A stretch of DNA of 64,000 bases from Opitutales bacterium. Lineage in GTDB: Bacteria > Verrucomicrobiota > Verrucomicrobiia > Opitutales > JAFGAQ01. A program made the translations under genes and the position numbers. Positions 8,869-64,000 of this stretch are shown piece by piece (within the stretch, counting starts at the first letter, position 1; each line of letters starts with the position of its first letter). The notes below the pieces were generated by a model, which saw only the letters and a program-made list of their open reading frames with translations, made no database searches and was not told the DNA's origin. The stretch is taken from the NCBI GenBank assembly GCA_033813415.1, contig JAPXRV010000006.1:10384-74383 (forward strand). The letters are read 5' to 3'.

Positions 8869-10818
8869 ATGAGTGCGATGCCTAGAATCCTCCTCCCAAC
8901 ACTATCCCTATCGCTGCTTCTTCTGCTCCAAGGCTGCGGAGACAGCAACACTCCCCGGTCAAAGGATGTGCAAGCGTATCTGGAATCCTTAATGTCCAAT
9001 TCGCCCATCAAGATCACCAGTTTTGAATCGACCAACTATCCGGCCGGGACAGACGCATTTGATGTCAAATTCACGGCGGAGATCCGGACGGCGGAGCCAT
9101 TATACACCTATGATGAGGATCCCGGGGCAGCTCGTTCAATCGATCCAAAGTCGATTGCGGAGGCCAGAAAAGCCTACGATCAATTGCCAGCCAGCCATAA
9201 GGTTGGGATCGACCCGATCAGCATCACCCTCGACTATCCGCTCATTGTCCAAAAAGTAAAGGCTGGATCCACGGCTCAATTCTCCGGGGTTGTCAGGGCC
9301 GAGCTTTTCGTCAAAACGTGGAAATTCACGCTACAGCGTTCCGAACCTGCCGATGTGACAGATGCCTTTGACGGTATATCGCTCGCGGAGATAAAAGGAG
9401 AATATAAAGGCTACTACATAACCGGCAGCGAAGAACACAAGCAGGCCCTCGCAGGTCTCGAAAATGCCAGAAACCGATACGTCAGTCAGGTCTCCGAAGC
9501 CAACGACAAATGGAAGCAACAAAGAGAAAAGGCGCTTGAGGAGGCGCGGGCACTTCTTGGGGAAATCAAATCGGATGCGGCAGACGGATACTGCTTCCAA
9601 ACTTCCGAAGACAGTCAGTATCCGGGATCTGTTTTCCTCAAATTCTCCGCTGACCCGTCGGGACTACTCAAGGCGGTTTTTCACAACGATGGATCGTCTG
9701 CTGACACCATCACTTACGAAGCAACCTCAAGGTATGAAAACAACCAACTACAGTTGGAACTGATCAAACCCGTTCGCAGTTCCGCAAAGCTGTTTGGACC
9801 CTTTCTCGAAAACGCTCCGGGTTCCATCCGGCTGACCAAGCTCAGCCGTGATGCTCTTTCGTTTTCCGCCTCACGGATGAACTTCAACATGACCAGAATT
9901 GACCGATACGCCTACGGCAGGGCGATGGACAGCACAATGGAGGGGATTCGGGAAATATCCTCGCTCCTGGCATCAGGCACATCGTTGGATGGAGTGGTCT
10001 CAAATCTCGAGAGAGGATTCACTGAGGAGATATGGCTGCACATAGGAGAGATGAACAGCAACGGATCCTTCTCGGGAAGCATTGAATCGATTCGAAACCC
10101 GTTCCTGAAATCCGGGGTCACCGGAGTACTACGGTCCAATCGGTATGACACCAGCGGAGGGATGCTGGTGATGAACTTCTCCGGAATGGGCCTGGACCGG
10201 ACCTACGAAAATGAATACATCCGGGAAGTCTTCGCCATCTCGTTTTCCAAAGATTTCGATTTCAAGGAAGGTTCTCTCTTCAGTGATGGAAATGTGTGGG
10301 ACTGGACGTTCAAACGGGCGAATGAGACACGCATGGAGGAAGTCAAGCGGGCCCGTAACAACCGACGCCAGTCGATCCTTGATTCTGTGAAAACCGGATT
10401 GATCTATGAGGGCATCATCCGGCTTCAGATCCCCGCGCTGGGCCTGCGTCCGGTCTACACTCCGCATCCAATCAGAATGACCATTCTCGATCTGGACCCG
10501 AATGAAAACCGGGTGCGTCTGGAAATCTCGCACAAAACCGACAAAAGGCTGAAGAGATCGTTCACAGGCACCATCGACTTCGATGACGTCAAGACCGGAT
10601 CCGAACCACTGTCCGTCTCAGCCTCCCAACCCGGTATCAGCAAAAGCACTATAGAAGTGCCTTTGCAGGCGCACATCTGGATGGAGGATGAGTTCTCGTT
10701 CACTCTGAAAGTTCGGGACGGCAAACTCATATGGGGAGACCTCGGGGAATTCGCGATTCCGCCTCCTGAGCCGATTCTGCCGGTGATCCCTGCAAGTGGT
10801 GCTGCAACCCAGCCCTGA
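8869..10818 (+). CDS. Large lipoprotein of unknown function
   Basis: Signal peptide with lipobox (LLLLLQGC GDS) and a long uninterrupted ORF with normal composition. No family recognised. Confidence 0.6.
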   Translation: MSAMPRILLPTLSLSLLLLLQGCGDSNTPRSKDVQAYLESLMSNSPIKITSFESTNYPAGTDAFDVKFTAEIRTAEPLYTYDEDPGAARSIDPKSIAEARKAYDQLPASHKVGIDPISITLDYPLIVQKVKAGSTAQFSGVVRAELFVKTWKFTLQRSEPADVTDAFDGISLAEIKGEYKGYYITGSEEHKQALAGLENARNRYVSQVSEANDKWKQQREKALEEARALLGEIKSDAADGYCFQTSEDSQYPGSVFLKFSADPSGLLKAVFHNDGSSADTITYEATSRYENNQLQLELIKPVRSSAKLFGPFLENAPGSIRLTKLSRDALSFSASRMNFNMTRIDRYAYGRAMDSTMEGIREISSLLASGTSLDGVVSNLERGFTEEIWLHIGEMNSNGSFSGSIESIRNPFLKSGVTGVLRSNRYDTSGGMLVMNFSGMGLDRTYENEYIREVFAISFSKDFDFKEGSLFSDGNVWDWTFKRANETRMEEVKRARNNRRQSILDSVKTGLIYEGIIRLQIPALGLRPVYTPHPIRMTILDLDPNENRVRLEISHKTDKRLKRSFTGTIDFDDVKTGSEPLSVSASQPGISKSTIEVPLQAHIWMEDEFSFTLKVRDGKLIWGDLGEFAIPPPEPILPVIPASGAATQP

Positions 10819-51488: not shown

Positions 51489-51927
51489 GGTTATAGTCTG
51501 GTCGGGGCCTGAGGATTTTCAAGACAGAAACCTTGATATTGCCCCGGACGTCGTTGTAGGAGCAGCCCATCCAACGAACGCAGTGAGCGATGTCACAAAC
51601 AAGAGTCTCTTTAACAACGTTTGCCAGCTAGGCTCACTAGGATCCGCAGCGCGGACATCGATTACAAGAGCGGAGTCCAAAGACTGCGGGTTTGAAGAAG
51701 TAGATCATTCTCTCGCCCGCTTCGACGCTGCATGCAGCGTCGAAGCTCAAGTCGCAAAGTCGCCAAGGAAAGAAAAACCGTATTTCTGAAACACGTGGAG
51801 CGAACGCAGTAAGTGATGTTAGGAAGAGAGATTTCCGTAACAACGCCCACCGGGAGGGCTACGCTCAGGTTCAGCGCATGCCGGGTTTCTCTCCCTTTGT
51901 CAGCAACATGAGACCTTCTTTCAGACG

Positions 51928-52078
51928 CTACTCCCAGGTATCGGGTCGCTTCGCGGTTACGATCCACCAAACTTGCTGCTTGCGGTAGACCAGCCAGATC
52001 CCCATTCGGTTCATTGTCGTGATTCGCAGCTAACCAACTCCGCCATTCGCTTCGGGTTGTGACTTCCACTCTCTTCAT
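51928..52078 (-). pseudogene. YdeI/OmdA-like gene remnant, frameshifted
   Basis: MKRVEVTTRSEWRSWLAANHDNEPNG, then in another frame GIWLVYRKQQ. Together these resemble the F..WL..NH....GIWL...KK start of the YdeI family. No intact ORF. Confidence 0.3.
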
Positions 52079-52185
52079 AACATAGATTTCAAACAGAACA
52101 ACCGTCAGACCAAATGACACCAACCCGAATGCGGATGATCGACGCGCATCCAACCATGTACGCGTTGTTCATATTAGGTTACGCC

Positions 52186-52605
52186 TCACTCACCATCGTT
52201 AACTCCAATAATCGCTCGCAGCTCAATCAACTCAGGCGACTCTGTTGAGATGTCAAACAGGTCTTCGGTGATATCCGTTACAGTATCCACGATACCGATA
52301 ATGAAATCACGTCCGGACTCACCATGCAGCCCTCCGAGAAAGACAGCTATGGCCTCAACATCGGCGAACCAGCCAGAGGGTTCTGTGTTCGGGTCTGGCA
52401 ACTCAAGATTCAGGCCCAAGTCCCAATACGGCAAATCACCTGGCTGCGCGCATGTCTCGTTCCAATGGCGTTGATTAACGACCCACACTCGGCCAGACAC
52501 CCAGTCTCGACTGTCGACAAACTCGGCAAAGCGGGCGTCCAGCAAATCCGCTACATCTTCAAGATCCGCTCCGTCAGTATATGCGTAAAGAACATGTCGG
52601 GCCAT
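52186..52605 (-). CDS. Acidic hypothetical protein (immunity-protein-like appearance)
   Basis: 139-aa ORF with clean coding look. No family recognised. Confidence 0.45.
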   Translation of the reverse strand: MARHVLYAYTDGADLEDVADLLDARFAEFVDSRDWVSGRVWVVNQRHWNETCAQPGDLPYWDLGLNLELPDPNTEPSGWFADVEAIAVFLGGLHGESGRDFIIGIVDTVTDITEDLFDISTESPELIELRAIIGVNDGE

Positions 52606-52785
52606 AACGCGCTATCAATTGAGCATCCAGTATTCAAAGCTTCTGCGATCGTCTCCCCTATGTCCATTTGAATCTATCGGATAAGACCAAGAACTCCTTT
52701 TTGGGCAGCTTATGCCCCATCCCATAACGATGGTTGTAATGACGTGAAGGAACACATGATAAGCGATCGAGTTTTGGAAGGAGGG

Positions 52786-53244
52786 TTAGGCGGTCTTGGC
52801 AAAATACCGCAGGGTGAGACGCAACATGTCGAAGAGTTGGATCCCATCCTCAAAGATCGGCGCAGGGTAGTGGTTGACAAAGAAGTCGTGGTCAATGCGG
52901 GTGACTCGAAACCCCTGCCGCTGGTAGAAGGCGAGTTGATATCCAAAGGTGCCGGTACCCACCTCTATTTCGCTTGCGCCGGCTTTGCGGTATTCATCAA
53001 TGACCCACTTCAAGAGCGCTGTGCCAACGCCTGACTGTTGGTGTTCCGGTTGAACCGCGATACTCATCAGCTCATGGCGACCGGAGCCAAGTGCCTGGAC
53101 GACACACGCACCGATAACCGCTTCACCCTTACAGGCAACGAAGCATTTTGACATCGGAAGATAGGAACGAATCTTTTCTTCCGATGGATCGGCAATCAGC
53201 AGCAGCTCAATCGGAGCTTCCGCTATCGGAACTTCCTGAATCAT
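52786..53244 (-). CDS. GNAT family N-acetyltransferase
   Basis: ELMSIAVQPEHQQSGVGTALLKWVIDEYRKAGASEIEVGTG...YQRQGF is the acetyl-CoA binding core. Start could be 53244, 53253 or 53262. Confidence 0.8.
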   Translation of the reverse strand: MIQEVPIAEAPIELLLIADPSEEKIRSYLPMSKCFVACKGEAVIGACVVQALGSGRHELMSIAVQPEHQQSGVGTALLKWVIDEYRKAGASEIEVGTGTFGYQLAFYQRQGFRVTRIDHDFFVNHYPAPIFEDGIQLFDMLRLTLRYFAKTA

Positions 53245-53326
53245 GACTGACATTCGTTTCATTTTTCCCGGTATAATGAGGATTTGTGAGCGCACATGAC
53301 AATCCCGGCCCGACAGACCCGTTCGC

Positions 53327-53572
53327 TCATTCCTCCTCGAACATTAACCGGAAGAGTTCCTGCGAGCGTTTGAGTCCCTCCTCAGTGAAAACCACGGATT
53401 TGGCTTTTCCCTTCGGGTCGTCAATCCATCCCTTCTTGTGCAGTCGGTCCATCACGTCCCAATCCTGGCCCTTCCATGCCCGGGTCACAAACCCATCATG
53501 GTGCGCCGTGAGGCTCAGCAAAGCGAGCACCGTATCATCAATCTTATCTTCATTTATTTTCATGGCATTCAA
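53327..53572 (-). CDS. Small conserved hypothetical protein (DUF6429-like by recollection)
   Basis: ...DDTVLALLSLTAHHDGFVTRAWKGQDWDVMDRLHKKGWIDDPKGKAKSVVFTEEGLKRSQELF. Confidence 0.55.
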   Translation of the reverse strand: MNAMKINEDKIDDTVLALLSLTAHHDGFVTRAWKGQDWDVMDRLHKKGWIDDPKGKAKSVVFTEEGLKRSQELFRLMFEEE

Positions 53573-53701
53573 CGTCGAGGTATATCACGGAGAGGAGCGC
53601 AACGACTCGGAGTTGAGATCGCTGCCTTGTTGACCTTTCCTTTTGGACTCACGCGAAGCGGGCGGGAGATTGTATTCATTTTTGGCCAACGTAAAGCTGT
53701 A

Positions 53702-54190
53702 TCACGGAGTGGAGCGCAGCGGAACGGAGTCAATACCACCGGCTGGCTCGACTTCCTGTGTTTGTTCGTTCGCAACCAACATCAAAATAACAAGCACAAT
53801 TGCCGCATGGGCGATCACGAAGACGAACCCTTTTCTATTCATCCATAACGGATTCTCATGGTTCTTTACTAGGAATGCCCAAATTCCAGAATTCAGCGTT
53901 AACGCTACGACTGCCAAGAATAGACATGGAATCGCAAAACGATATGCTCTGCGATTTGCCAATTGATCCTCAGTGATCCAATCATTCAGGGCAATGGCCG
54001 TAATTCGGAGCGCTTCAATACTTTTCGAATCACCAATTTTTCCGGCTAACGAAGTATGCCTTTCAATCGGGTAATTGTGGGCTCTCGCGTTGATTTCGCC
54101 AAACTGGTACAAAACAAGAAAACAGGCTACCATCGAAAACACGTTCAAGAGGTAGATAACCAATGCTGAAAATGGGGATCGTTTTTCCAT
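53702..54190 (-). CDS. Membrane protein, unknown function
   Basis: Four hydrophobic helices (e.g. FSALVIYLLNVFSMVACFLVLY, CLFLAVVALTLNSGIWAFLV, VFVIAHAAIVLVILMLV). Confidence 0.45.
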   Translation of the reverse strand: MEKRSPFSALVIYLLNVFSMVACFLVLYQFGEINARAHNYPIERHTSLAGKIGDSKSIEALRITAIALNDWITEDQLANRRAYRFAIPCLFLAVVALTLNSGIWAFLVKNHENPLWMNRKGFVFVIAHAAIVLVILMLVANEQTQEVEPAGGIDSVPLRSTP

Positions 54191-54596
54191 GTTGTCGATC
54201 AGTGTTCAATTCATTGCCATGAACCGGCAACAAATACGGGAAACCAAGGTAGCGGTTGGCTCACGTGATCAATGTTGCTGATGGGTTGGCCGATTGGCAA
54301 TCGGAAAGTATATGGACTCTGTTCCTCCTGTCTGATTGTTGTTTTTGGACATGATTTATGGGATTGAACGGGTTCATCTTCCTGCAAACTCATGATCCGT
54401 TCCTATGATCCATATTTTCGGGGCATCCAACACCATTGACCACAATAAGCGCGCATGGTTTTTCATAAACCTCTTATGCGGATAAAAGACGCGTCCACCT
54501 CTGAAGGAGGGGGTGCGTCGATCACGGGGTGAGAATTGTGGCCTGGGCAAATCATCGAAACTGAAACGCAGGTAGGGGTCTTCCCGACGCGTCTGG

Positions 54597-54977
54597 TTAG
54601 GTTTCTTCGATTTGCGTGGCGACTTCACATGGCAGAAATGAATCATCGCCGCAAGCATCAGGATCAATCGCTTCAAAGAGTCGTCTGAAATGTTCGCGGG
54701 GCTGCGTATGTATGAGCAGAAGTGCCTCGGCCAATTGTGGCACACTGGACGCAACCAACCTACGAGACCGGAATGCATCGTCATGATCGACCATGAAAAT
54801 CCTTCCTGACTCTTCGATGTCAATGCACATGGGGTTACCAGCCCCATCCGATCCCAATGTGTGGTATCGCTTCAGGAAATCGGTATCCACGCCGGAGACG
54901 CCATACGGAAAGCAACCGAGCATTCCAATGAATCCGGCCAAAGGCATGTCGCCTTTGGTTTGCGGTTTCAAGGGCAT
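54597..54977 (-). CDS. SUKH (SMI1/KNR4)-like immunity-type protein, possibly N-terminally truncated
   Basis: ...LGSDGAGNPMCIDIEESGRIFMVDHDDAF...VASSVPQLAEALLL resembles the SUKH-family C-terminal half. Start uncertain. Confidence 0.4.
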   Translation of the reverse strand: MPLKPQTKGDMPLAGFIGMLGCFPYGVSGVDTDFLKRYHTLGSDGAGNPMCIDIEESGRIFMVDHDDAFRSRRLVASSVPQLAEALLLIHTQPREHFRRLFEAIDPDACGDDSFLPCEVATQIEET

Positions 54978-55047
54978 TGAAACGGGTTTTCAAGGAACGA
55001 TCCGGGCCGACAATACGGACATGATGGCGCGAGGATTATTGGGTTCA

Positions 55048-55164
55048 TATTCCCGAACGGGAACAAGCTCAGAGTATTCAGCTGCAATCGCGGTTTCATT
55101 ACCGAACGGGAATAATAGGCTTGATTACCTCAGGCATCTCTGATTGTAATACCGAACGGGAATA
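55048..55164. promoter_or_regulatory. Three imperfect 18-bp palindromes (TATTmCCG-AA-CGGGAAyA) spaced 49-50 bp apart upstream of the HTH gene: candidate operators
   Basis: tattcccgAAcgggaaca at 55048-55065, cattaccgAAcgggaata at 55097-55114 and taataccgAAcgggaata at 55147-55164. The last ends 14 nt before the ATG at 55179. Confidence 0.55.
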
Positions 55165-55178
55165 AACTCGAAATAAGA

Positions 55179-55388
55179 ATGACGACTCAGCAAATCGGCG
55201 AAGAGATTAAGGTGCAGCGAAAGCGCCTTAAAATGAATCAATCGGAGTTGGCGATGGTATCCGGCACGGGGGTGCGCTTCATCAGTGACTTGGAGAACGG
55301 CAAACCAAGCTGCGAGCTGGGCAAGACGCTTTCGGTCCTGACAAATCTGGGCCTCGATATCCAAATCACTCCACACAAAGGCGCGTAA
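55179..55388 (+). CDS. XRE-family HTH protein, HipB-like antitoxin
   Basis: QIGEEIKVQRKRLKMNQSELAMVSGTGVRFISDLENGKPSCELGKTLSVLTNLGLDI is the typical y4mF/HipB-type antitoxin sequence. Confidence 0.8.
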   Translation: MTTQQIGEEIKVQRKRLKMNQSELAMVSGTGVRFISDLENGKPSCELGKTLSVLTNLGLDIQITPHKGA

Positions 55389-55415
55389 AATGGCCAGAAC
55401 CCTGAATGCTTTTGC

Positions 55416-55712
55416 ATGCGACTCGCGGCGCGTTCCGGACTTGATGTGGCACCCGTTGCCATTGGCACAGCAGGACCATACCGGTTCCTGCAAGTGGGGC
55501 GCTATGATCGCAAGCCACTCGGAAAGAACTGGCTGAGGTTTTTCCACGATGCAGGACTTGGTCCCGCAGTCGCTGCCAAGCGGCTGAGAGCGTTTGCGGC
55601 AAATGTGAGCAAAAATGTCCGTGCGATGGATGAATCCGCAGCCGGGTGGGAGCTGATATCGCCGATCGTTTTGGCCAACTGCGCCCGCGTGATCTCACTT
55701 GATATCAGATGA
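55416..55712 (+). pseudogene. HipA kinase toxin remnant (internally deleted)
   Basis: MRLAARSGLDVAPVAI...YRFLQVGRYDR resembles the HipA core (..RFDR). It then jumps to a C-terminal-like segment. At 98 aa it is far short of the roughly 440 aa expected. Confidence 0.55.
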
Positions 55713-56086
55713 CAGCCACCCGGTTTTGTGACTGGCTTGCCATGAGCCCTTCGGCCTTGCTCAGGATCAACAAGTGATCGAAGGAACTGAGGAACGCGTC
55801 TTACCAAGCCACGATTCATGGGGGCGACATCTTCAATCGCGGAGAGAGGGGGATTGCAGGCTTCTCGCCGCAGCTGCGGCTCGTGAACAACGCTCGGAAA
55901 AGTCATATCATCCACCCGATTTCAAACACTGGATGCTCCCCTCCTTTCCATGAAATGTCGTGGACTTCCACGTCTTTTCGTGAACCGGAGTGCATTTGCC
56001 TCCGATCATGGAGAGTTTGGAATTGAATCCCATACATCTGCGCCATTTAATCAGGGACTGTCGGAACAATCACCCCATCCCTTCCC

Positions 56087-57847
56087 ATGGCCAGCCGGAA
56101 ATCCAACACCGATAAGACTTCAAAAACATCCACCGCCAATATCGGCTTCGAGGCAAAGCTCTGGCTCGCCGCCGACAAGCTGCGCAACAACATGGACGCG
56201 GCGGAATACAAGCACGTCGTCCTGGGGCTGATCTTCCTCAAATACATCTCCGACACCTTTGAGGAACACCGCTCCAAGCTGCTGACAGGGGAAGGGGACT
56301 ACGAAGGAGCAAACCCCGAAGATCCAGACGAATACAAGGCTGAGAACGTCTTCTGGGTGCCTTCCGAAGCCCGTTGGTCGTATCTGCAGGCCAACGCCAA
56401 ACAACCCACCATCGGAAAGCTGGTGGACGATGCCATGGTTGCCATCGAGCGCGACAACCCACGCCTCAAGGGTGTGCTGCCCAAGGACTATGCGCGGCCA
56501 GCGTTGGATAAACATCGGCTGGGAGAGTTGATCGACTTGATTGGTAGCATCGAGCTTGGAGACCGCGCACCCTCACCCCAGCCCTCTCCCAGCGGGAGAG
56601 GGAGCGAAGACGGCCTCCCCTCTACCACTGGGAGAGGGGTCGGGGGTGAGGGTGGACCGACCCACAGATCGGTAGATCTGTTGGGGCGTGTCTATGAGTA
56701 TTTCCTCACCCGCTTTGCATCTGCCGAAGGGAAAAACGGTGGTCAGTTCTACACACCCTCCTGTATCGTGCGCCTGCTGGTGGAAATGCTGGCTCCCTAC
56801 AAAGGACGCATCTACGACCCATGCTGTGGTTCCGGTGGCATGTTTGTGCAGTCCGAAAAGTTTGTAGAGGCTCACGGGGGACGTCTGGGCGACATCAGCA
56901 TCTACGGGCAGGAGAGCAATGCCACCACCCGCCGCCTCGCCATCATGAACCTCGCGATCCGCGGCATCGAGGCCGACTTCGGCTCCGAACACGCCGACAC
57001 CTTCCGCCGCGACCTGCATCCCGACCTCCGTGCCGACTACGTGCTCGCCAATCCACCCTTCAACGACAGCGACTGGTTCCGCAAGGACGACGATGTGCGC
57101 TGGGCTTACGGCGTCCCACCCAAGGGCAACGCCAACTTCGCCTGGGTACAGCACTTTATCCACCACCTCGCCCCCAACGGCTTGGCAGGCTTCGTCCTTG
57201 CCAACGGCAGCATGAGCTCCAATCAGTCCGGCGAAGGCGACATCCGCAAAGCCCTCATCGAGGCTGACCTTGTGGACTGTATGGTCGCTTTGCCCGGACA
57301 GTTGTTCTACTCCACGCAAATCCCTGTGTGTCTGTGGTTTCTAAGTCGCGATAAGTCCGGGCGACCACCCTCATCCCCGACCCTTCTCCCAAAGGGAGAA
57401 GGGAGGAAAGCGGGAACCGATAGGCGCAAACAAACGCTGTTTATAGATGCAAGAAAGCTGGGCACGCTGATCGACCGCGTCCACCGCGAACTGACTGAAG
57501 CTGACTTGGAGAAAATCACCTCCACCTATCACCTCTGGCGTGGTGACCCTCACCCGACCTCTGGCCACCCTCTCCCAGCGGGAGAGGGACGGGGTGAGGG
57601 CGAATCCATGCACTATCAAGATGTTGCCGGCTTCTGTAAGTCGGCGACTACTCAGGAAATTGCTGGGCATGGATTCGTGCTCACACCAGGTCGCTATGTG
57701 GGAGCCGAGGAAGTCGAAGACGACGGCGAACCCTTTGACGAGAAGATGCCCCGCCTCATTGCCGAACTGGAGGCGCAGTTTGCCGAGTCTGCCAAGCTGG
57801 AACAGGCCATCCGCTCCAACCTCAAAGGACTCGGTTTCGGAGGATGA
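56087..57847 (+). CDS. hsdM: Type I restriction-modification system, DNA methyltransferase subunit
   Basis: HsdM_N ([38 protein letters not shown]), [13 protein letters not shown] and catalytic NPPF. Carries three in-frame low-complexity inserts that coincide with palindromic DNA elements. Confidence 0.93.
56568..56655. repeat. Nested palindromic mini-element ('ccctcacccc...gggagaggg' family) inside hsdM, in-frame
   Basis: Outer arms caccctcacccc (56568-56579) / ggggtgagggtg (56643-56654). Inner hairpins ccctctccc-agc-gggagaggg (56582-56602) and cccctct...agagggg (56617-56639). Translated as [30 protein letters not shown]. Confidence 0.85.
57365..57406. repeat. Palindromic mini-element, second in-frame copy in hsdM
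   Basis: ccaccctcatccccga + cccttctccc-aaa-gggagaaggg (57381-57403). Translated as [15 protein letters not shown]. Confidence 0.8.
57547..57600. repeat. Palindromic mini-element, third in-frame copy in hsdM
   Basis: ccctcacccg (57547-57556) ... ccctctccc-agc-gggagaggg (57568-57588) ... cggggtgaggg (57590-57600). Translated as [18 protein letters not shown]. Confidence 0.85.
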
Positions 57848-57850
57848 ATC

Positions 57851-58792
57851 ATGGCAGACCCCCTTTCCATCATCCCCTTGAGCAACATCAAACCGCTGAT
57901 TTACACCATTCGCGGGCAACAGGTCATGCTCGACAGCGACTTGGCGGAAATCTACGAAGTGGAAACCAAGTTTTTCAACCGTGCGGTGAAACGCAACATT
58001 GAGCGTTTCCCTGACACATTTCGATTTCAGCTGACCCAAGAGGAATATGATAGCTTGCGGTCACAATGGGTTACCCCAAGCCCAGACGATTCTTTAAGGT
58101 GCCAAATTGGAACCTTAGAAAAAGAAGGACGCGGACAGCACAGGAAGTATTTGCCCTACGCCTTCACCGAGCAGGGTGTGTCCATGCTCTCAGCTGTTCT
58201 ACGGAGCGACACGGCGATCAAGGTCAGCATCCAGATCATCAACGCCTTTGTCGAGATGCGCCGCTTCATCCAGGGCAGCGCGAGTCTCTTCGCCCGTCTG
58301 GATTCAGTCGAGAAGCGCCAGCTCGCCTTGGAAACCAAAACCGCCGAAAACTTCGAAAAAGTCTTTCAGGCACTCGAAGCTTCCGCACCGCCCAAACAAG
58401 GCATTTTCTACGATGGGCAGGTTCACGATGCCCACGTTTTCGCTTCCGACCTCATCCGCAGTGCGAAAAAGACCCTCATCCTTATCGACAACTACGTCGA
58501 CGATACCGTGCTCACGCTCCTGACCAAGCGGAAGCAAGGGGTCACCGCCAGCATCTTTACCAAGAGCATTTCGAAGCAACTCGCCCTCGACCTCGAAAAG
58601 CACAACGCACAATACCCGCCCATCGAGATCAAGACCTTCAAGGACGCCCACGACCGCTTCCTCATCCTCGATGAGCGCGACATCTACCACATCGGTGCCT
58701 CTCTCAAGGACCTCGGCAAAAAGTGGTTCGCCTTCTCCAAATTCGAAACCGGAGCCCTCGACATGCTCAAAAAACTGGGGGAAGGAAAATGA
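57851..58792 (+). CDS. ORF6N (KilA-N-related) domain protein
   Basis: IRGQQVMLDSDLAEIYEVETKFFNRAVKRNIERFPDTFRFQLTQEE is the ORF6N signature. The C-terminal domain ends ...AHDRFLILDERDIYHIGASLKDLGKKWF. Starts 4 nt after the hsdM stop. Confidence 0.8.
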   Translation: MADPLSIIPLSNIKPLIYTIRGQQVMLDSDLAEIYEVETKFFNRAVKRNIERFPDTFRFQLTQEEYDSLRSQWVTPSPDDSLRCQIGTLEKEGRGQHRKYLPYAFTEQGVSMLSAVLRSDTAIKVSIQIINAFVEMRRFIQGSASLFARLDSVEKRQLALETKTAENFEKVFQALEASAPPKQGIFYDGQVHDAHVFASDLIRSAKKTLILIDNYVDDTVLTLLTKRKQGVTASIFTKSISKQLALDLEKHNAQYPPIEIKTFKDAHDRFLILDERDIYHIGASLKDLGKKWFAFSKFETGALDMLKKLGEGK

Positions 58793-59016
58793 ACGCCAGC
58801 TTCAAAGCATTTCACCCTTCCGATTTCAACCTCCACCATTCAACCATGACCGCTGAATCCGGACAAAAAGAAACCTTGGTGCCTTTCGACTGCAAGCAGC
58901 CGAGGAAGGGATACCAAGGTCAACGGGGGAATTCTGCTGCTTTCCCATGGGTGCGTCAAACTACATTTTCACAGAGCAGTGGGAGTTGTTCGCCCTGTGA
59001 TGGGAAGCGGGAAATG

Positions 59017-59105
59017 GTGAAGAGTGAAGTTAGAAAAGTGAAAACGGCATTGGCCATCTGCTTTGGAGTCTTTCACCATTCTGATTTCACTCTTCACTCT
59101 TCAAC
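59017..59105. repeat. Second palindromic element family ('gtgaagagtgaa...ttcactcttcac'), intergenic copy upstream of hsdS
   Basis: Left arm gtgaagagtgaagttagaaaagtgaaaac, right arm gtctttcaccattctgatttcactcttcactcttcaac. A half copy lies at 58807-58845. Confidence 0.8.
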
Positions 59106-59119
59106 AGGAGGGCTGGGTT

Positions 59120-60481
59120 ATGGCGGGTGAATGGAAAATATCGCGATTGGGCAATTGTGTCACCCATCAAAAGGGGTTCGCCTTTAAGTCTTCGGACTAT
59201 CGGCCAAGTGGGCACCCTATCATTCGGGTTTCGAACTTCACCGACCGGTCAATCGACATGGCCGAGTGCAGCTATTTGGACCACGACACGGTTCAGCAAT
59301 ACGAAGACTACAAACTCAGGCACCGTGATGCCGTCATTGCGACCGTTGGATCTTGGCCGACAAATCCAGCTTCTGTCGTGGGGAAAACCATCTGCGTTCC
59401 GGAGAAGGCGGAAGGCGCTCTCCTGAACCAAAACGCTGTTCGCTTGCGAACAAAGGCAGACCTCGACCAACGCTTCCTGTTCTACTTGCTGAAGCAGCCA
59501 GACTTTCAGACCTACATCGTTGGGACTGCGCAAGGCAGCGCAAGTCAGGCGAGCATTACCCTTAGCGACATCTTCGGATTCGAGTTCCAATGCCCACCCC
59601 TCCCCGAGCAAAATGCGATTGCGGGAATACTTGGGGCGCTGGATGACAAGATCGAGTTGAACCGGCGGATGAACGCCACGCTGGAGGCGATGGCACGGGC
59701 ACTGTTTCAATCGTGGTTTATTGATTTCGATCCAGTCCGGCGAAACATGGATCGAAACGGGCAACCCACGCAACAAAGTAAAACAGGAAGCGTGAAGCGT
59801 GAAATGGAACCGCCTTCCGCCATTTCTGATTTCACTTCTCAATCTTCCCACTTCGACTCCCTCTTCCCCGCGAGCTTCCAAGACTCCCCCCTCGGCCCGA
59901 TTCCGAAGGGGTGGCGAGTTGCCTCGATCTACGAAATCGCAGATGTAATATATGGTGCTCCGTTTGCCTCATCTCTTTTCAACTCGGAGAGAGTTGGAAA
60001 GCCACTGGTTAGAATCAGAGACTTACCCAGTGAAAGCCCAGGAGTTTTCACGACTGAAGAGCATCCTAAAGGATACTTGCTTAAGCCTGGCGACATTGCC
60101 GTCGGGATGGACGGTGAATTCCGAGCCTACATTTGGGCAGGCGTGGAATCGTGGCTAAATCAGCGAGTCTGTGTCTTCGCACCGAAGCCCGGATTTTCCG
60201 CCGCATTTGTTCGCAATAGTATCATCGCCCCCCTCGCTCAAGTTGAAGCTACTGAGACCGCGACAACCGTGATTCACCTTGGCAAAAACGATATCGACCG
60301 CTTCACCGCGATCCTCCCTTGTGCGTCTGTTGCTGAAGCGTTTACTCGTCTATGCCAGCCGTGGTATGAGAAGATTGTCACCAACAAACAGCAATCCCGC
60401 ACCCTCGCAACCCTGCGCGACACGCTGCTTCCGAAGCTGCTGAGCGGAGAAATCTCCACCTTATCGATCACAATCAACTGA
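59120..60481 (+). CDS. hsdS: Type I restriction-modification system, specificity subunit
   Basis: Two target-recognition domains separated by the conserved helix PPLPEQNAIAGILGALDDKIELNRRMNATLEAMARALFQSWFIDFDP, with a C-terminal LRDTLLPKLLSGEI. Start trimmed to MAGEWKISRLG at 59120. Confidence 0.88.
   Translation: MAGEWKISRLGNCVTHQKGFAFKSSDYRPSGHPIIRVSNFTDRSIDMAECSYLDHDTVQQYEDYKLRHRDAVIATVGSWPTNPASVVGKTICVPEKAEGALLNQNAVRLRTKADLDQRFLFYLLKQPDFQTYIVGTAQGSASQASITLSDIFGFEFQCPPLPEQNAIAGILGALDDKIELNRRMNATLEAMARALFQSWFIDFDPVRRNMDRNGQPTQQSKTGSVKREMEPPSAISDFTSQSSHFDSLFPASFQDSPLGPIPKGWRVASIYEIADVIYGAPFASSLFNSERVGKPLVRIRDLPSESPGVFTTEEHPKGYLLKPGDIAVGMDGEFRAYIWAGVESWLNQRVCVFAPKPGFSAAFVRNSIIAPLAQVEATETATTVIHLGKNDIDRFTAILPCASVAEAFTRLCQPWYEKIVTNKQQSRTLATLRDTLLPKLLSGEISTLSITIN
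59787..59854. repeat. 'gtgaag' family palindromic element inserted in-frame in hsdS after the central conserved helix
   Basis: gaagcgtgaagcgtgaaatgg ... ccatttctgatttcacttctcaatcttcccacttc. Translated as GSVKREMEPPSAISDFTSQSSHF. Confidence 0.75.
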
Positions 60482-60489
60482 ATGAACCA

Positions 60490-60717
60490 ATGCCGATACT
60501 ACCTAAGGAACAACCGCTCCAATCAATTCCAAAACCGCTGACTAAGGAGGATATCGATAATATCTTCTCTGTCCTTCATTTGGAGTCAGAAAATCAACGA
60601 GAGCGATTCCGAGTCATGTCCGAGGACAACAAACGTTCGGAAGTAAAATCGACTACACTTTGGCTACCTGGAACACCTGATTTTCAACAAGAAAACCAAG
60701 GAGTATCCCATGCCTAA
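60490..60717 (+). CDS. Small hypothetical protein (75 aa), upstream partner of the Clp-fold protease
   Basis: Starts 8 nt after the hsdS stop and ends 8 nt inside the next ORF. An AAGGAG RBS for the next gene lies within its 3' end. No family recognised. Confidence 0.45.
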   Translation: MPILPKEQPLQSIPKPLTKEDIDNIFSVLHLESENQRERFRVMSEDNKRSEVKSTTLWLPGTPDFQQENQGVSHA

Positions 60718-61597
60718 TTGGAATGAGTTGCTCAACGAGGTGAAAGCACTTGGGAGTGCGCATGATGTGCTTAGGCGGAAGTATTTGAGGCAGCTACATG
60801 AGCTTACGACGCGCAATGTCATCGTCTACTGCAGCGGCTGGCTGCAAAAACAGGGCGTCTCTGGAGGCGGAATAAATGACGAAGATAAGAACGGATTCAT
60901 GAACGCAGTCAACGGACTGGATAGATCCCTAGGCTTAGATTTGGTGCTGCACACCCCTGGTGGTGAAACCGCAGCAACCGAATCTTTGGTCGATTACCTG
61001 AGGCAGATGTTTAATGGCAACATCCGAGCAATTGTTCCCCAACTTGCGATGTCGGGTGGAACGATGATATCGTGTGCTTGTAAGAGCATCTTGATGGGCA
61101 AGCAATCTAGCCTCGGTCCGGTTGATCCGCAGTTTAACGGAATTCCAGCTCATGGCGTTCTTGAGGAGTTCAATAGGGCTCGCGATGAGATACGAGTAGA
61201 CCCGTCAAAGATTCCTGTTTGGCAGCCAATCATCGCAAAATATTCCCCGGCCTTTATAGGCGAGTGCCAAAAGGCTGTCTCGTGGTCTGAAACACTTGTT
61301 CGAGAATGGTTAGCTACCGGAATGCTAGCCGAAGACGCAAAACGGGCCGAGAAGATTGAAAGGATTGTTGAAGAGCTGACTAACCATGCTCTGTCACTTT
61401 CCCATGCACGCCATTTGTCCCCTGCAACATGCGTAGAAATGGGATTGAAAGTCGATATGCTCGAAGACGACCAAAGACTGCAGGACGCGGTTCTGAGCCT
61501 GCACCACGCCTACATGCTGACCATGTCGCAAACGGCAGCATTCAAGATCATTGAGAACCACAAAGGGGCTGCGTTTATTAAGTCCGCTCAGGTTTAG
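60710..61597 (+). CDS. ClpP/crotonase-fold serine protease of the SDH ('serine dehydrogenase proteinase')/S49-like type
   Basis: NVIVYCSGW..., LDLVLHTPGGETAATESLVDYLRQMF and AIVPQLAMSGGTMISCACKSILMGKQSSLGPVDPQ. This matches my recollection of SDH-family Clp-fold proteinases. No signal peptide. Confidence 0.7.
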   Translation: MPNWNELLNEVKALGSAHDVLRRKYLRQLHELTTRNVIVYCSGWLQKQGVSGGGINDEDKNGFMNAVNGLDRSLGLDLVLHTPGGETAATESLVDYLRQMFNGNIRAIVPQLAMSGGTMISCACKSILMGKQSSLGPVDPQFNGIPAHGVLEEFNRARDEIRVDPSKIPVWQPIIAKYSPAFIGECQKAVSWSETLVREWLATGMLAEDAKRAEKIERIVEELTNHALSLSHARHLSPATCVEMGLKVDMLEDDQRLQDAVLSLHHAYMLTMSQTAAFKIIENHKGAAFIKSAQV

Positions 61598-61646
61598 GTC
61601 GTGCAGACGACAGGATAACACTATGACCCTCACCGAATCTATCATG

Positions 61647-61727
61647 AAAAGAGTGAAGCGTGAAACCGGAAGATTGAAAAATTCGGAGTCATTTCCTGTT
61701 TAACTCTTCACCCTTCACCCTTCCAAC
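61647..61727. repeat. 'gtgaag' family palindromic element, intergenic copy
   Basis: aaagagtgaagcgtgaaaccggaagattgaaaaattcgg / gagtcatttcctgtttaactcttcacccttcacccttccaacc. Confidence 0.75.
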
Positions 61728-61741
61728 CGTAGCTTGTCCCC

Positions 61742-63694
61742 ATGATCGACATCCAATCCATTGCTGATCTGGAACTTCTGCGAGAGTCCGTTGACCTTGA
61801 GTGTAAGCTTGCGGCTGGACGCGATGGCAGGGGAGCGTTGCCCGAGGATTTCTGGCCAACCTACAGTGCGTTTGCCAACACGGAAGGGGGAATCGTTCTG
61901 CTGGGCGTCAGGGAGAAACAGGGGCAGTTCATCGTCGAGGGTGTAGGGAACGTAGCCAAGGTGCGGAAGGAACTGTTCGATGCCCTGAACAACCGACAGA
62001 AGGTGAGCAGCAACCTGCTCACCGATTTGCAGGTGCGGGAAATCCAGCTCGAAGGTCGGTTGGTCATCGTGGTTGAAATCCCGCGGGCGACACGCAAACA
62101 ACGCCCCGTATATCTGACAACCAATCCGTTTGCTCAACACACCTTTCGTCGCCTGAACGATGGGGACCGTCCACTGCCTGACGACGAGGTCAAGCGGATG
62201 TTAGCGGAGCAAGTGGAAGACAGTCGGGATGATCGAATCCTGCGCGGCTATGACCTGGAGGACCTCGACCTGGCAACCTTTCGAGCCTATCGGCAGGTCT
62301 TCGCCAATCGTGACCCAAACCACCCTTGGAACGTGTTGCCTGACGGTGAGTTTTTGCGCCAAATCGGTGGCTGGCGCAAGGATCGCGAGACCGCTGAGAG
62401 CGGCATCACCCTTGCGGGATTACTCATGTTTGGTCAGATGGTTGCGATCCAGGAGGAGCTGCCAAACTACATGCTCGACTATCAGGAGCGAGCTGAGGTG
62501 AATACGGAGCGGCGCTGGGTGGATCGGCTGACTCTGGACGGGAAGTGGTCCGGTAATCTGTATGACTTTTACCGTAAGGTTTATCTGAAGCTGACGGGAG
62601 AGCTGAAGGTGCCGTTCTCGCTTGAGAGGGGGGAGCGAAAGGATGAAACACCGGTCCATGAAGCCCTTCGTGAAGCGTTGGCAAACACATTGGTGCATGC
62701 AGACTACTCGGATCGTGCTTCGGTGCTTGTTGTGAAACGCCCGGATATGTTCGGCTTCCGCAATCCAGGATTGATGCGCATTCCCGCTGACATAGCCATT
62801 CAAGGAGGCGAGCACGACTGTCGTAACCGGACCCTACACAAGATGTTTCGGTTTGTAGGTGTGGGTGAACAAGCAGGCTCCGGAATTCCCAAAATCTATC
62901 AAGGTTGGGCGAGTCAGCACTGGCGGGCTCCAGCCCTTTACGAGCGGATCGAACCCTACAATCAGACGCGCCTTGAGTTGCGGATGGTGGATTTGCTGCC
63001 AGCGGTAGTCGTGGCTGCTCTCCGGAAGGCGTTCGGAGCAAAATTTGATGCCCTCGGGCAGAATGAGCGACTTACTCTCGCTGCAGCAACTTCTGAACGG
63101 GTGGTGACTCATGCCCGCGTGCGGGAAATGACAGCACTGCATCCTTTTGACCTGACTCGGATGCTGCAAAACCTCGTTCGGGACGGTTTTCTGAAAACGC
63201 ATAATGCGGGGCGAGGGGCGGTCTATTGTTTACCTGGGGCCGCTCTACCCAAACCGGAAGAAGTGTTCGGAGTGGGCTCCGAACATTCCATGTCTACCTC
63301 CGCACATTTGACTGAAAGCTCCGCATATTTGGCGGAAGTATCGATGAACGACGAGCATCGAGATGCCAACGGTTGCCTGCTGGCTAATCAACTCGATGCG
63401 CCTGTGATCGATTCCTTGGAGAGACTGATTCCAGCCTATCGTGAGCAACTTGAAAAACTTGCGACCCAGCCAAGAACCAAAGGAAAGCTGCCTGTTGAGA
63501 CCATGAAGGCAGTGATTCTTGCCGTCTGCTCAGGCCACTACGTGACGCTGAGTTGCCTTGCCCAACTCGTGAACCGGGATCCGGATGCGCTCAGGCAGCA
63601 ATACCTTAAACCATTGGCGAAGGAAGGTGTGTTGCGATTGCCCTTTCCCACGGCTCCAACTCACGGCAAACAAGCTTATCGCACCGTTGATTGA
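61742..63694 (+). CDS. Schlafen/AlbA_2-type DNA-binding domain + HATPase_c_4-like domain + C-terminal wHTH protein
   Basis: ESVDLECKLAAGRDGRGALPEDFWPTYSAFANTEGGIVLLGVREK (AlbA_2 'divergent AAA' signature). Mid-region ALREALANTLVHADYS...GSGIPKIY. 650 aa. Confidence 0.8.
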   Translation: MIDIQSIADLELLRESVDLECKLAAGRDGRGALPEDFWPTYSAFANTEGGIVLLGVREKQGQFIVEGVGNVAKVRKELFDALNNRQKVSSNLLTDLQVREIQLEGRLVIVVEIPRATRKQRPVYLTTNPFAQHTFRRLNDGDRPLPDDEVKRMLAEQVEDSRDDRILRGYDLEDLDLATFRAYRQVFANRDPNHPWNVLPDGEFLRQIGGWRKDRETAESGITLAGLLMFGQMVAIQEELPNYMLDYQERAEVNTERRWVDRLTLDGKWSGNLYDFYRKVYLKLTGELKVPFSLERGERKDETPVHEALREALANTLVHADYSDRASVLVVKRPDMFGFRNPGLMRIPADIAIQGGEHDCRNRTLHKMFRFVGVGEQAGSGIPKIYQGWASQHWRAPALYERIEPYNQTRLELRMVDLLPAVVVAALRKAFGAKFDALGQNERLTLAAATSERVVTHARVREMTALHPFDLTRMLQNLVRDGFLKTHNAGRGAVYCLPGAALPKPEEVFGVGSEHSMSTSAHLTESSAYLAEVSMNDEHRDANGCLLANQLDAPVIDSLERLIPAYREQLEKLATQPRTKGKLPVETMKAVILAVCSGHYVTLSCLAQLVNRDPDALRQQYLKPLAKEGVLRLPFPTAPTHGKQAYRTVD

Positions 63695-63700
63695 TCAGCC

Positions 63701-64000
63701 ATGACCCTCACCGAATCCAACATCGAAGACGCTGCCCTGGAGTGGTTCAAGGAACTCGGCTACTCCATCGGGCATGGACCCCAGCTTGCACCGGGTGAGC
63801 ATGCCGGAGGCACCCTCACCCCGGGGGAGAGGGAGTCTTATGCGGATGTGGTGCTGGTGGGACGCTTGCGCAGTGCGATCCGGCGGCTGAATCCGGCCAT
63901 TCCCGAGGAGGCGCGGGAAGAGGCATTGAGAAAAGTGCTGCGGGTGGGGACGCCGGCGCTGGTGCAGACGAACCGCGCCTTTCATCGGATGCTGCGCGAC
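63701..64000 (+). CDS. hsdR: Type I restriction enzyme R subunit, N-terminal part (continues beyond window)
   Basis: MTLTESNIEDAALEWFKELGYSIGHGPQLAPGE...VVLVGRLRSAIRRLNPAIPEEAREEALRKV is a typical HsdR N-terminus. The frame is open to the end of the window, which is why the ORF track has no entry. Confidence 0.88.
   Translation, partial: MTLTESNIEDAALEWFKELGYSIGHGPQLAPGEHAGGTLTPGERESYADVVLVGRLRSAIRRLNPAIPEEAREEALRKVLRVGTPALVQTNRAFHRMLRD

Follow-up and report, generated by a model that had tools for sequence, protein, structure and literature searches.

What are four genes that encode no restriction-modification (R-M) subunit doing inside a type I R-M operon? The 64,000-nucleotide (nt) stretch of Opitutales bacterium contig JAPXRV010000006.1 analyzed here (positions 10,384 to 74,383; hereafter the window) ends in such an operon, where genes for an ORF6N-domain protein, a 75-amino-acid (aa) protein, a Clp-fold protease, and an AlbA_2/HATPase_c_4 protein lie among hsdM, hsdS, and hsdR. 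That type I operons can have other genes embedded in them has been known since PrrC, an NTPase-linked RNA nuclease whose non-R-M gene sits between hsdS and hsdR. We lean toward the view, which we hold to be somewhat probable, that a working type I R-M operon has here become the landing site for three independently mobile defense-type modules, probably co-transcribed with the R-M genes. The R-M enzyme would methylate self DNA and cut unmodified foreign DNA without any need for these passengers, which would add further layers of defense.

Layout of the operon and condition of the R-M genes

The open reading frame (ORF) listing and profile searches gave seven genes head to tail, all on the + strand, in the order hsdM, ORF6N gene, hsdS, 75-aa ORF, protease gene, AlbA_2/HATPase_c_4 gene, and the start of hsdR (Table 1). 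A preliminary description of the window had given the same order and strand, and its spacings are exact: hsdM and the ORF6N gene are 3 nt apart, hsdS and the 75-aa ORF are 8 nt apart, and the 75-aa ORF overlaps the protease gene by 8 nt. A further 6 nt separate the AlbA_2 gene from hsdR. That description also took the gaps to be short throughout, which holds at the junctions it quoted but overlooks a gap of 327 nt between the ORF6N gene and hsdS (58793–59119) and one of 144 nt between the protease and AlbA_2 genes (61598–61741). Both contain strong hairpin repeats, and the junctions are not uniformly tight. The first gap is measured from an hsdS start at ATG 59120. Hidden Markov model (HMM) matches on the mechanically called hsdS ORF (TTG 59063) begin only at residue 20–23, and ATG 59120 lies in the same overlap of hsdM end and hsdS start as in a relative, L006; therefore, ATG 59120 is the most likely start. 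Four of the seven genes had been counted as non-R-M cargo. As the 75-aa ORF pairs with the protease gene in one conserved unit, the four cargo ORFs amount to three modules.

For comparison, we used contigs of the same locus from other metagenomes (L002–L005, ~97% nucleotide identity to the window) and relatives with a related R-M backbone (L006, L008, L009, and L034). The closest relatives of three locus proteins come from Verrucomicrobiota metagenome-assembled genomes, which makes this the probable phylum of the host.

The R-M backbone carries the features of an active enzyme. HsdM contains PF12161 and PF02384, and its S-adenosylmethionine (AdoMet) motif and NPPF motif (ANPPFN) are invariant in an alignment with four relatives. 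HsdS has the canonical layout, with two Methylase_S stretches that represent two target-recognition domains (TRDs). Neither TRD1 (59131–59593) nor TRD2 (59758–60388) can be aligned between the window and the same-locus contigs. The central region between them (59594–59757) is 92.7% identical, and flanks and center together fall at 93–97%. Overall HsdS protein identity to these contigs is 36%, though they are otherwise ~97% identical to the window. Since both TRDs are wholly different, the strains should differ in type I specificity. By its sequence pattern, this exchange of TRDs between strains is classic specificity shuffling. Such shuffling has a point only in a working enzyme, so the backbone looks functional.

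The full hsdR is uninterrupted in the same-locus contigs L002 and L004 (1273 aa; L002:6674–10495) and encodes HSDR_N, ResIII/SWI2_SNF2, T1R_D3-like, and T1RH-like_C domains. The L002 protein is ~200 aa longer than those of relatives owing to five lineage-specific in-frame inserts: one short N-terminal insert (the window palindrome at 63806–63837), three repeat-type peptides, and one DUF559 domain. The DUF559 domain, which has a Vsr-like endonuclease fold, is complete and occupies residues 537–637 of L002 HsdR, inside the helicase region and with palindrome-derived peptides on either side.

Two families of repeats decorate the operon. Family A is a GC-rich palindrome with core CCCTCTCCCnnnGGGAGAGGG and flanks CCCTCACCCC/GGGGTGAGGG that adds "PSPxGRG/GEGRGEG" peptides to the encoded proteins. 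Five copies of the core occur in the 64-kb window, against 0.05 expected by chance; all are within hsdM or hsdR, and the passenger genes are free of them. The double copy in the hsdM linker is missing from HsdM of L006, L009, and L034. The 51-nt copy is present in the window and missing from the otherwise 99%-identical HsdM of the same-locus contigs (586 versus 569 aa). Family B is an AT-richer hairpin repeat (TTTCACTCTTCACTCTTC / AAGAGTGAAG) with seven matches in the window, all in the operon, against 0.06 expected. All insertions of repeats into coding sequence in the window are in frame; hsdM has three of them, and hsdS and the 5′ end of hsdR have one each. No known RNA family was found in the gaps, and searches returned only sub-threshold miRNA-hairpin artifacts on the hsdM palindrome.

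Table 1. Genes, repeat elements, junction remnants, and promoter match at the type I R-M locus (window coordinates).
Feature	Position	Strand	Details
hsdM	56087–57847	+	586 aa; HsdM_N + N6_Mtase, E = 4.7e-102; PADLOC MTase_I, E = 8.7e-208
Passenger 1, ORF6N protein	57851–58792	+	313 aa; PF10543, E = 3.3e-33; PADLOC PDC-S05 over full length, E = 2.6e-129
hsdS	59120–60481	+	453 aa from ATG 59120; Methylase_S; PADLOC Specificity_I over full length, E = 5.6e-96
Passenger 2a, 75-aa ORF	60490–60717	+	No library match
Passenger 2b, SDH-type Clp-fold serine protease	60710–61597	+	295 aa; PF01972, 71.1 bits (cut-off 31.3)
Passenger 3, AlbA_2/HATPase_c_4 protein	61742–63694	+	650 aa; both domains exceed Pfam cut-offs
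hsdR, first 100 codons	63701–64000	+	ATG 63701; HSDR_N; PADLOC REase_I; truncated by window end
hsdM 3′-end remnant ("..GGLGYGG*")	59106–59130	+	Overlaps hsdS start codon; ORF6N insertion scar
hsdR 5′-end remnant (ATGACCCTCACCGAATC..)	61623–61645	+	23 nt, 91% identical to hsdR start 63701–63723; AlbA_2 insertion scar
Family A, double copy	56568–56655	+	In frame in hsdM linker; hairpin −69.8 kcal/mol, z = −5.7
Family A element	57365–57406	+	In frame in hsdM
Family A insertion	57539–57589	+	51 nt/17 codons, in frame in hsdM; enclosing hairpin 57546–57601, −38 kcal/mol
Family A palindrome	63806–63837	+	In frame at hsdR 5′ end
Family B stretch	58808–58841	+	ORF6N–hsdS gap
Family B hairpin	59016–59098	+	ORF6N–hsdS gap; fold −42.9 kcal/mol, z = −4.1
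Family B element	59788–59847	+	In frame in central part of hsdS
Family B hairpin	61649–61723	+	Protease–AlbA_2 gap
Sigma-70-like promoter match	55884–55911	+	~175 nt upstream of hsdM; only + strand match near operon; weak

So many additions raise the possibility that the locus is a decaying, non-functional R-M remnant, with passengers that repeated horizontal transfer simply left behind. Such decay would suit the four cargo ORFs, the palindromic elements (at least five) within hsdM, hsdS, and hsdR, the gene-end remnants, and a same-locus hsdR with an extra DUF559 domain and further inserts. However, no R-M ORF is interrupted, the insertions all have lengths divisible by three and are free of stop codons, the catalytic motifs are retained, TRDs are actively exchanged between strains, and the passengers are under strong purifying selection, with 55–71% mean column identity across phyla. 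We consider decay very improbable, and we reject a dead locus on the strength of ORF integrity and TRD exchange. Because the catalytic motifs are intact, both hsdS TRDs have been swapped, and the repeat insertions keep the frame, the R-M genes look functional, and the backbone is apparently intact and under selection.

The composite nature of the locus, type I R-M plus defense-type passengers, is borne out by this analysis. The preliminary description had further supposed that the R-M phenotype may depend on, or be modulated by, the passengers, and had suggested a comparison of passenger combinations across genomes. That comparison found the same backbone with differing cargo in relatives, and the supposed dependence is unsupported: L006, L008, and L009 keep the backbone, here hsdM-hsdS-small ORF-protease-hsdR, without the ORF6N or AlbA_2 gene or with other cargo instead, and the junction remnants mark these two genes as later additions. 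Since relatives retain the backbone in the absence of the ORF6N and AlbA_2 genes, comparison of the sequences argues that the R-M enzyme does not need these two passengers. Conversely, it is plausible that the two position-locked passengers rely on the R-M enzyme.

Junction duplications and differing cargo

Two of the junctions retain copies of the hsd gene ends that they interrupt. After the protease stop codon come the 23-nt copy of the hsdR start, a hairpin repeat, and then the AlbA_2 gene. At the equivalent place in L006, the duplicate of the hsdR 5′ end measures ~240 nt, and the gene after it encodes RhuM instead. The true end of hsdM is at 57847, and the second hsdM 3′ end in front of hsdS matches the overlap of hsdM end and hsdS start in L006 (GGCTCGGTTATGGCGGGTGA). 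These leftover copies show that the ORF6N gene (at the hsdM/hsdS junction) and the AlbA_2 gene (at the hsdR 5′ end) are later insertions. In this Verrucomicrobial lineage, the ancestral operon was therefore hsdM-hsdS-(small protein + protease)-hsdR. Each insertion duplicated the junction it interrupted, so that the downstream start stayed intact. The mechanism may have been illegitimate recombination facilitated by homology, or else a circle with an hsd gene end may have integrated in Campbell fashion. Family B repeats occur at the exact cargo insertion sites and may mark or mediate the insertions.

The relatives are consistent with this order of events. L006 and L009 have the R-M backbone with neither the ORF6N nor the AlbA_2 gene, and L006, L008, L009, and L034 have the hsdS-small ORF-protease...hsdR arrangement in common with different cargo. 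The slots in these relatives hold RhuM, GmrSD, deaminase-HATPase_c_4, Mrr, DUF3037, DUF3800, and DUF1828/1829 genes. From the junction duplicates, it can be seen how a type I operon takes up cargo and stays unbroken.

Embedding is far more extreme than in the window at another Verrucomicrobial locus (L086:1–15313), where no fewer than 12 ORFs separate hsdS from hsdR. These include SMODS and S_4TM (CBASS-like) genes, RhuM, two Schlafen-GHKL genes, GmrSD, and several unknowns. In the same-locus contig L003, a 175-nt copy (L003:1817–1991) of window positions 55959–56133, the hsdM promoter and 5′ region, is 91% identical to the original. It lies ~3 kb upstream of hsdM and precedes a RhuM/DUF6088 block, which suggests that duplication-type insertion of cargo also occurs at the upstream edge of the operon.

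The three passenger modules

The AlbA_2/HATPase_c_4 protein (passenger 3) joins a Schlafen domain (PF04326, AlbA_2/Schlafen; 45.1 bits, cut-off 25.3) to a GHKL ATPase domain (PF13749, HATPase_c_4; 28.5 bits, cut-off 26) and bears a ~230-aa C-terminal extension. A 2026 preprint has named this pairing of Schlafen and GHKL "Schlatpase." The residues E15-x4-E20-x-K22 are invariant in 40 homologs and fit the acidic catalytic motif of Schlafen nucleases, E-x4-[ED], as in E17/D22 of CbCash (PMC13462974). PADLOC pAgo profiles align weakly to residues 37–345, and the subfamily is otherwise without a PADLOC 2.0 match.

We surveyed the genomic context of Schlafen-GHKL genes in 77 non-redundant related metagenome loci, counting a flank only where at least 2 kb of it was present. 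hsdR lies downstream on the same strand in 41 of 48 loci, within 400 nt in 34 of these 41 and at a spacing of 4–15 nt in many. Upstream, hsdS or hsdM was found in 42 of 47 loci, and type I genes stand on both sides in 32 of the 36 with enough flank. The linkage covers two HsdR families, and the proteins linked to EcoEI-type HsdR form one clade nested among the others. At the sequence level, this nesting indicates long co-inheritance and at least one move between R-M families with the position kept. Homologs also stand alone (L096–098, L125, L130, and L132). In metagenome contigs L088–L090, a type I operon with a Schlafen-GHKL gene adjoins Tn7-like tnsA/tnsB/tniB genes, and in two of these three contigs hsdS is replaced or disrupted by an insertion sequence (DDE_Tnp_1). 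The composite of type I operon and Schlafen-GHKL gene may, in these contigs, travel as transposon cargo.

Prokaryotic Schlafen nucleases are antiviral tRNases (PMC13056530, PMC13462974), and homologous Schlafen-GHKL modules cleave tRNA under ATP control (10.64898/2026.05.29.728809, PMC13462974, PMC13056530). R-M-linked, ATPase-bearing Schlafen clusters have been noted bioinformatically, and the authors speculated that R-M-linked Schlafens sense DNA cleavage products (PMC13462974). Because homologous modules cleave tRNA and the gene is locked in position before hsdR, we predict that passenger 3 is an ATP-switched tRNA or RNA nuclease. Much like PrrC, it would be linked in function to the type I enzyme and would bring about abortive infection once that layer has been engaged or overcome.

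The ORF6N protein (passenger 1) consists of an ORF6N DNA-binding domain, a coiled coil, and a C-terminal PLD-fold domain. Residues 8–309 align to positions 12–300 of the 306 in PADLOC profile PDLC04869 (PDC-S05; see Table 1 for the E value). The AlphaFold2 (AF2) model of the C-terminal domain has a pLDDT of 85–93, and Foldseek matches it to PLD, NucT, Zucchini, PLD3, and TrmBL2 with probability 1.0; PLD4 and F13 also match. Across 45 aligned homologs, H267-x-R269-x4-D274...G282-x-S284 is invariant, which is the HKD motif with Lys replaced by Arg. PDC-S05 is a candidate defined by a "guilt-by-embedding" survey of defense genes (10.1101/2024.01.29.577857), and a representative gave ~1000-fold protection against phages T7 and T5 in E. 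coli (10.1101/2024.09.26.614923). The candidate was defined on the basis of embedding in BREX, DISARM, or type I R-M clusters, and passenger 1 is embedded in the last of these. Homologs lie directly after hsdM and before hsdS in four of six contexts sampled elsewhere, or five of seven with this locus, overlapping hsdM or within 40 nt of it. Of the other two contexts, one is beside a type I system but outside it, and the other is a different defense-like setting. We predict that passenger 1 is a DNA-binding nuclease of single-HKD type, or a DNA-binding factor, with anti-phage activity of its own. Searches of the literature for ORF6N together with type I restriction found nothing relevant. A relationship to RhuM, which would have transferred the PDC-S05 result to this protein, was rejected, as BLASTP against the RhuM protein of L006 showed no similarity.

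ORF6N and AlbA_2 proteins had been described beforehand as frequent passengers of type I loci with no demonstrated function there. Their frequency agrees with the contexts counted above. The statement on function is outdated, as the PDC-S05 representative, a protein with a RhuM domain, protects E. coli and Schlafens have been shown to be antiviral tRNases, although the R-M-linked Schlafen cluster is itself uncharacterized.

The fixed positions of these two genes also fit a different explanation, in which the ORF6N-PLD and Schlafen-GHKL proteins are functional accessories of the type I enzyme rather than autonomous systems. They would bind HsdM/HsdS or HsdR and act either as guards freed by phage anti-restriction proteins, following PrrC logic, or as modulators of restriction. 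The near-obligate, position-specific linkage of Schlafen-GHKL to hsdR across two HsdR families, often at 4–15 nt, speaks for this explanation, and so does the placement of ORF6N-PLD immediately after hsdM. Further support comes from PrrC, which is almost exclusively embedded in type I R-M (10.1101/2024.01.29.577857), and from the published speculation on the sensing of cleavage products. But L006 and L009, close relatives of the backbone, do without both genes, and homologs occur outside operons or entirely alone, including one on a Pantoea plasmid. Furthermore, the fixed position could stem from recombination through the conserved hsdM 3′ and hsdR 5′ flanks, as the junction duplicates hint. 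We consider accessory function rather unlikely and retain the interpretation of independently mobile modules.

The 75-aa ORF and the protease gene (passenger 2) together form a self-contained two-gene cassette. The small protein is acidic (pI 5.3, equal to the family median of 5.3) and has the family consensus "..IEEVFRDLGLETEEERERF..". At almost every one of 80 species-level genome loci, a small ORF adjoins or overlaps the start of the protease gene, and an iterative HMM seeded with the 75-aa ORF recruits 62 of 77 such small ORFs and zero reversed decoys. The pair has the layout of a type II toxin-antitoxin-like module, in which a small upstream gene is translationally coupled to a larger effector and the two are mobile together. 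The protease family has more than 7600 homologs, with 59–92% identity across the 80 loci, which span many bacterial phyla and several archaea. By this distribution, the cassette is among the more widely transferred ones seen in this analysis.

The protease model has an AF2 pLDDT of 89.6, and its best Foldseek matches are SppA, ClpP, and PH1510-N with probability 1.0, all of the ClpP-crotonase fold. Among 81 sequences, conservation is 97% or higher at S115, D139, and H148, with S115 invariant, and the nucleophile Ser lies within "AMSGGT." While the Pfam PF01972 cut-off is exceeded, the NCBIfam equivalog NF047768 (SDH family Clp-fold serine proteinase) reaches 88.4 bits against a cut-off of 250, which places the protease in the Pfam family and outside that equivalog.

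The cassette lies inside a type I operon in ~5 of the 80 loci, namely this one, three Verrucomicrobial relatives, and one gammaproteobacterium. No third conserved partner was found among 145 immediate neighbors or 1200 ORFs within 10 kb. The immediate neighbors match 175 Pfam families, each hit by at most two neighbors. Within 10 kb, the only specific families that recur are those of tyrosine integrases, at 6 loci, and of type I subunits, at 5–6 loci. In several loci, the cassette adjoins GmrSD, DISARM-like helicase, SIR2, and HNH genes, and it also occupies accessory-gene positions of temperate phages and prophages. The protease matches phrog_11747, of unknown function, over its full length (E = 5.5e-97). 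We predict an autonomous toxin-antitoxin-like or abortive-infection cassette, in which the small acidic protein would restrain the protease or serve as its substrate, and for which the operon would be a ride rather than a specific home.

Two other roles for the protease were considered and rejected. One was a protease dedicated to restriction alleviation through HsdR, on the model of ClpXP and EcoKI; as a general role, it does not fit the few loci in type I operons and the otherwise unrelated neighbors. The other was a prophage head-maturation protease. Here the match to phrog_11747 covers the full length, that to head proteases is weak and local, and no structural phage genes lie nearby.

We tentatively entertain a bolder proposal, possible but doubtful: that the 75-aa protein and the protease are an undescribed immunity or addiction cassette in which the small protein restrains the protease until infection and, separately, that the Schlafen-GHKL protein is a tRNase resembling PrrC that is set off by the engagement or the inhibition of type I restriction.

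A promoter upstream of hsdM probably drives the passengers together with the R-M genes, judging from co-orientation, the tight junctions, and a weak consensus promoter. No classical terminator was found within the operon, and the family B hairpin at 59016–59098 has no T-run after it and hence is not one. The promoter and terminator scans were uninformative, with counts at or below those from shuffled sequences, and the consensus may not cover this type of organism.

Several observations weigh against a composite of co-transcribed defense modules. For transcription, the 9-kb region has 4 promoter matches against 3.8 from shuffles, the hsdM promoter is a consensus match only, and very stable hairpins occupy the gaps of 327 and 144 nt, where they could attenuate transcription or conceal promoters outside the scope of the scan. 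For the cassette, there is no match or model in PADLOC 2.0, many of its neighbors are housekeeping genes, and its defense role is guilt by location only. The Pantoea plasmid homolog of Schlafen-GHKL, at 48% identity, is not adjacent to any R-M, and JGI labels homologs of this protein "predicted HTH transcriptional regulator." The sole experimentally tested PDC-S05 member carries a RhuM domain and not the ORF6N-PLD architecture. Finally, Arg stands in place of the catalytic Lys in passenger 1, and over its full length the protein is structurally matched best by TrmBL2, a chromatin protein that is non-catalytic; passenger 1 may therefore be a regulator.

Taken further, some of these points would make none of the passengers a defense effector. 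The ORF6N-PLD protein and the helix-turn-helix (HTH)-bearing Schlafen-GHKL protein would instead regulate the operon at the transcriptional or chromatin level, like a C protein or RptR, and the protease pair would be a selfish addiction (toxin-antitoxin) cassette that stabilizes any DNA into which it moves. The match of the ORF6N domain to phage anti-repressor and Rha-like regulator families agrees with this, and the cassette adjoins integrases as well as housekeeping genes. Regulators of type I operons are also known, RptR for example. However, an invariant Schlafen catalytic motif is unexpected in a pure regulator, and the PDC-S05 representative alone protected E. coli from phages. The cassette occupies accessory slots of prophages and stands beside known types of defense genes elsewhere, and toxin-antitoxin-like modules and abortive-infection defense can coincide. 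We regard a purely regulatory or selfish role as distinctly unlikely and return to mobile defense-type modules as the preferred interpretation.

The sequence common to the window and the same-locus contigs starts at ~55630–55666. Further upstream, 55049–55165 holds three copies of a 14-nt palindrome (TTCCCGAACGGGAA and variants) at 49–50-nt spacing, ~0.9 kb from hsdM. These are not shared by the same-locus contigs and look like putative operator sites for a regulator. No RptR-type regulator was identified upstream of the operon. The region 51600–55600 has a G+C content of 0.46–0.52, versus 0.56–0.59, and contains short ORFs without Pfam matches and one GNAT acetyltransferase gene; it is probably the rest of a genomic island. 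The housekeeping genes CMAS, DUF1295, and AhpC precede it at 48–50.9 kb.

Comparison with known systems

If the passengers are active, one operon would provide compact layered immunity, in which the restriction of unmodified DNA is combined with a PLD-type factor that binds DNA, a protease cassette, and a tRNase of the Schlafen type. The very widespread protease cassette, absent from PADLOC 2.0 and the literature searched, becomes a candidate through its embedding and its prophage accessory slots. The Schlafen-GHKL gene wedged before hsdR makes the activation of R-M-linked Schlafens directly testable, and a PrrC-like tRNase here, if true, would amount to a general "second shot" for type I enzymes. 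If the passengers are inert or only regulatory, the locus is an ordinary case of a published pattern.

That pattern is well documented. TgvAB on VPI-2 of Vibrio cholerae (PMC11411939) and DarTG2 of enteropathogenic E. coli (PMC12255303) have been shown experimentally to be embedded in type I R-M operons, and the "guilt-by-embedding" survey of embedded defense genes was systematic (10.1101/2024.01.29.577857). Like these systems, the passengers described here lie between hsd genes and share their orientation; the gap from hsdS to hsdR has been noted as a hotspot. The difference is that three different modules share one operon, one of them at the hsdM/hsdS junction.

The Schlafen-GHKL gene holds the same slot before hsdR as prrC of the E. 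coli prr locus (EcoprrI), and its relatives also cleave tRNA. However, PrrC combines an ABC-ATPase with the PrrC nuclease and has no sequence or fold relationship to Schlafen and GHKL, and no PrrC, ABC, or AAA_13 domain was matched in any passenger in Pfam, NCBIfam, or PADLOC. PrrC is also kept latent by the R-M enzyme that it binds and is activated by an anti-restriction peptide. In our analysis, the resemblance to PrrC is positional and functional only. Passenger 3 is closer to the prokaryotic Schlafens and Schlatpases (SLFN-pAgo RzAgo, Cash, and pSlfn), with which it has in common an AlbA_2 domain with the acidic motif joined to a PF13749 GHKL ATPase. Unlike these, it has no Argonaute, Csx15, or Ig sensor, and it has the C-terminal extension and the fixed position before hsdR.

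Passenger 1 has the PLD fold and the H-x-[KR]-x4-D...G-x-S motif of single-HKD PLD nucleases such as NucT, Zucchini, and Nuc, but with Arg instead of the catalytic Lys in all 45 homologs. It also has the domain order of TrmBL2, with a DNA-binding domain, long helices, and a PLD-like domain, though its N-terminus is ORF6N (KilA-N/Rha-like) and not a winged helix-turn-helix. A sequence search of solved structures found nothing close to any passenger.

The protease of passenger 2 has the ClpP-crotonase fold and conserved nucleophile Ser of ClpP, SppA, PH1510-N (stomatin-specific protease), and PF01972 proteins. An extra helical domain, made up of ~130 residues at the C-terminus, keeps the TM-score down to 0.40. 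The protease also differs in having an obligate small acidic partner gene, and in having no membrane or stomatin partner and no ClpX or ClpA. Searches of the literature for PF01972, SDH, S49, or DUF114 proteases in defense found nothing relevant.

The locus is thus an instance of the published embedding pattern, and its layout is of a kind already documented. What it adds to the literature searched is the protease cassette as an unlisted candidate, a quantified linkage of Schlafen-GHKL genes to hsdR, and the junction scars.

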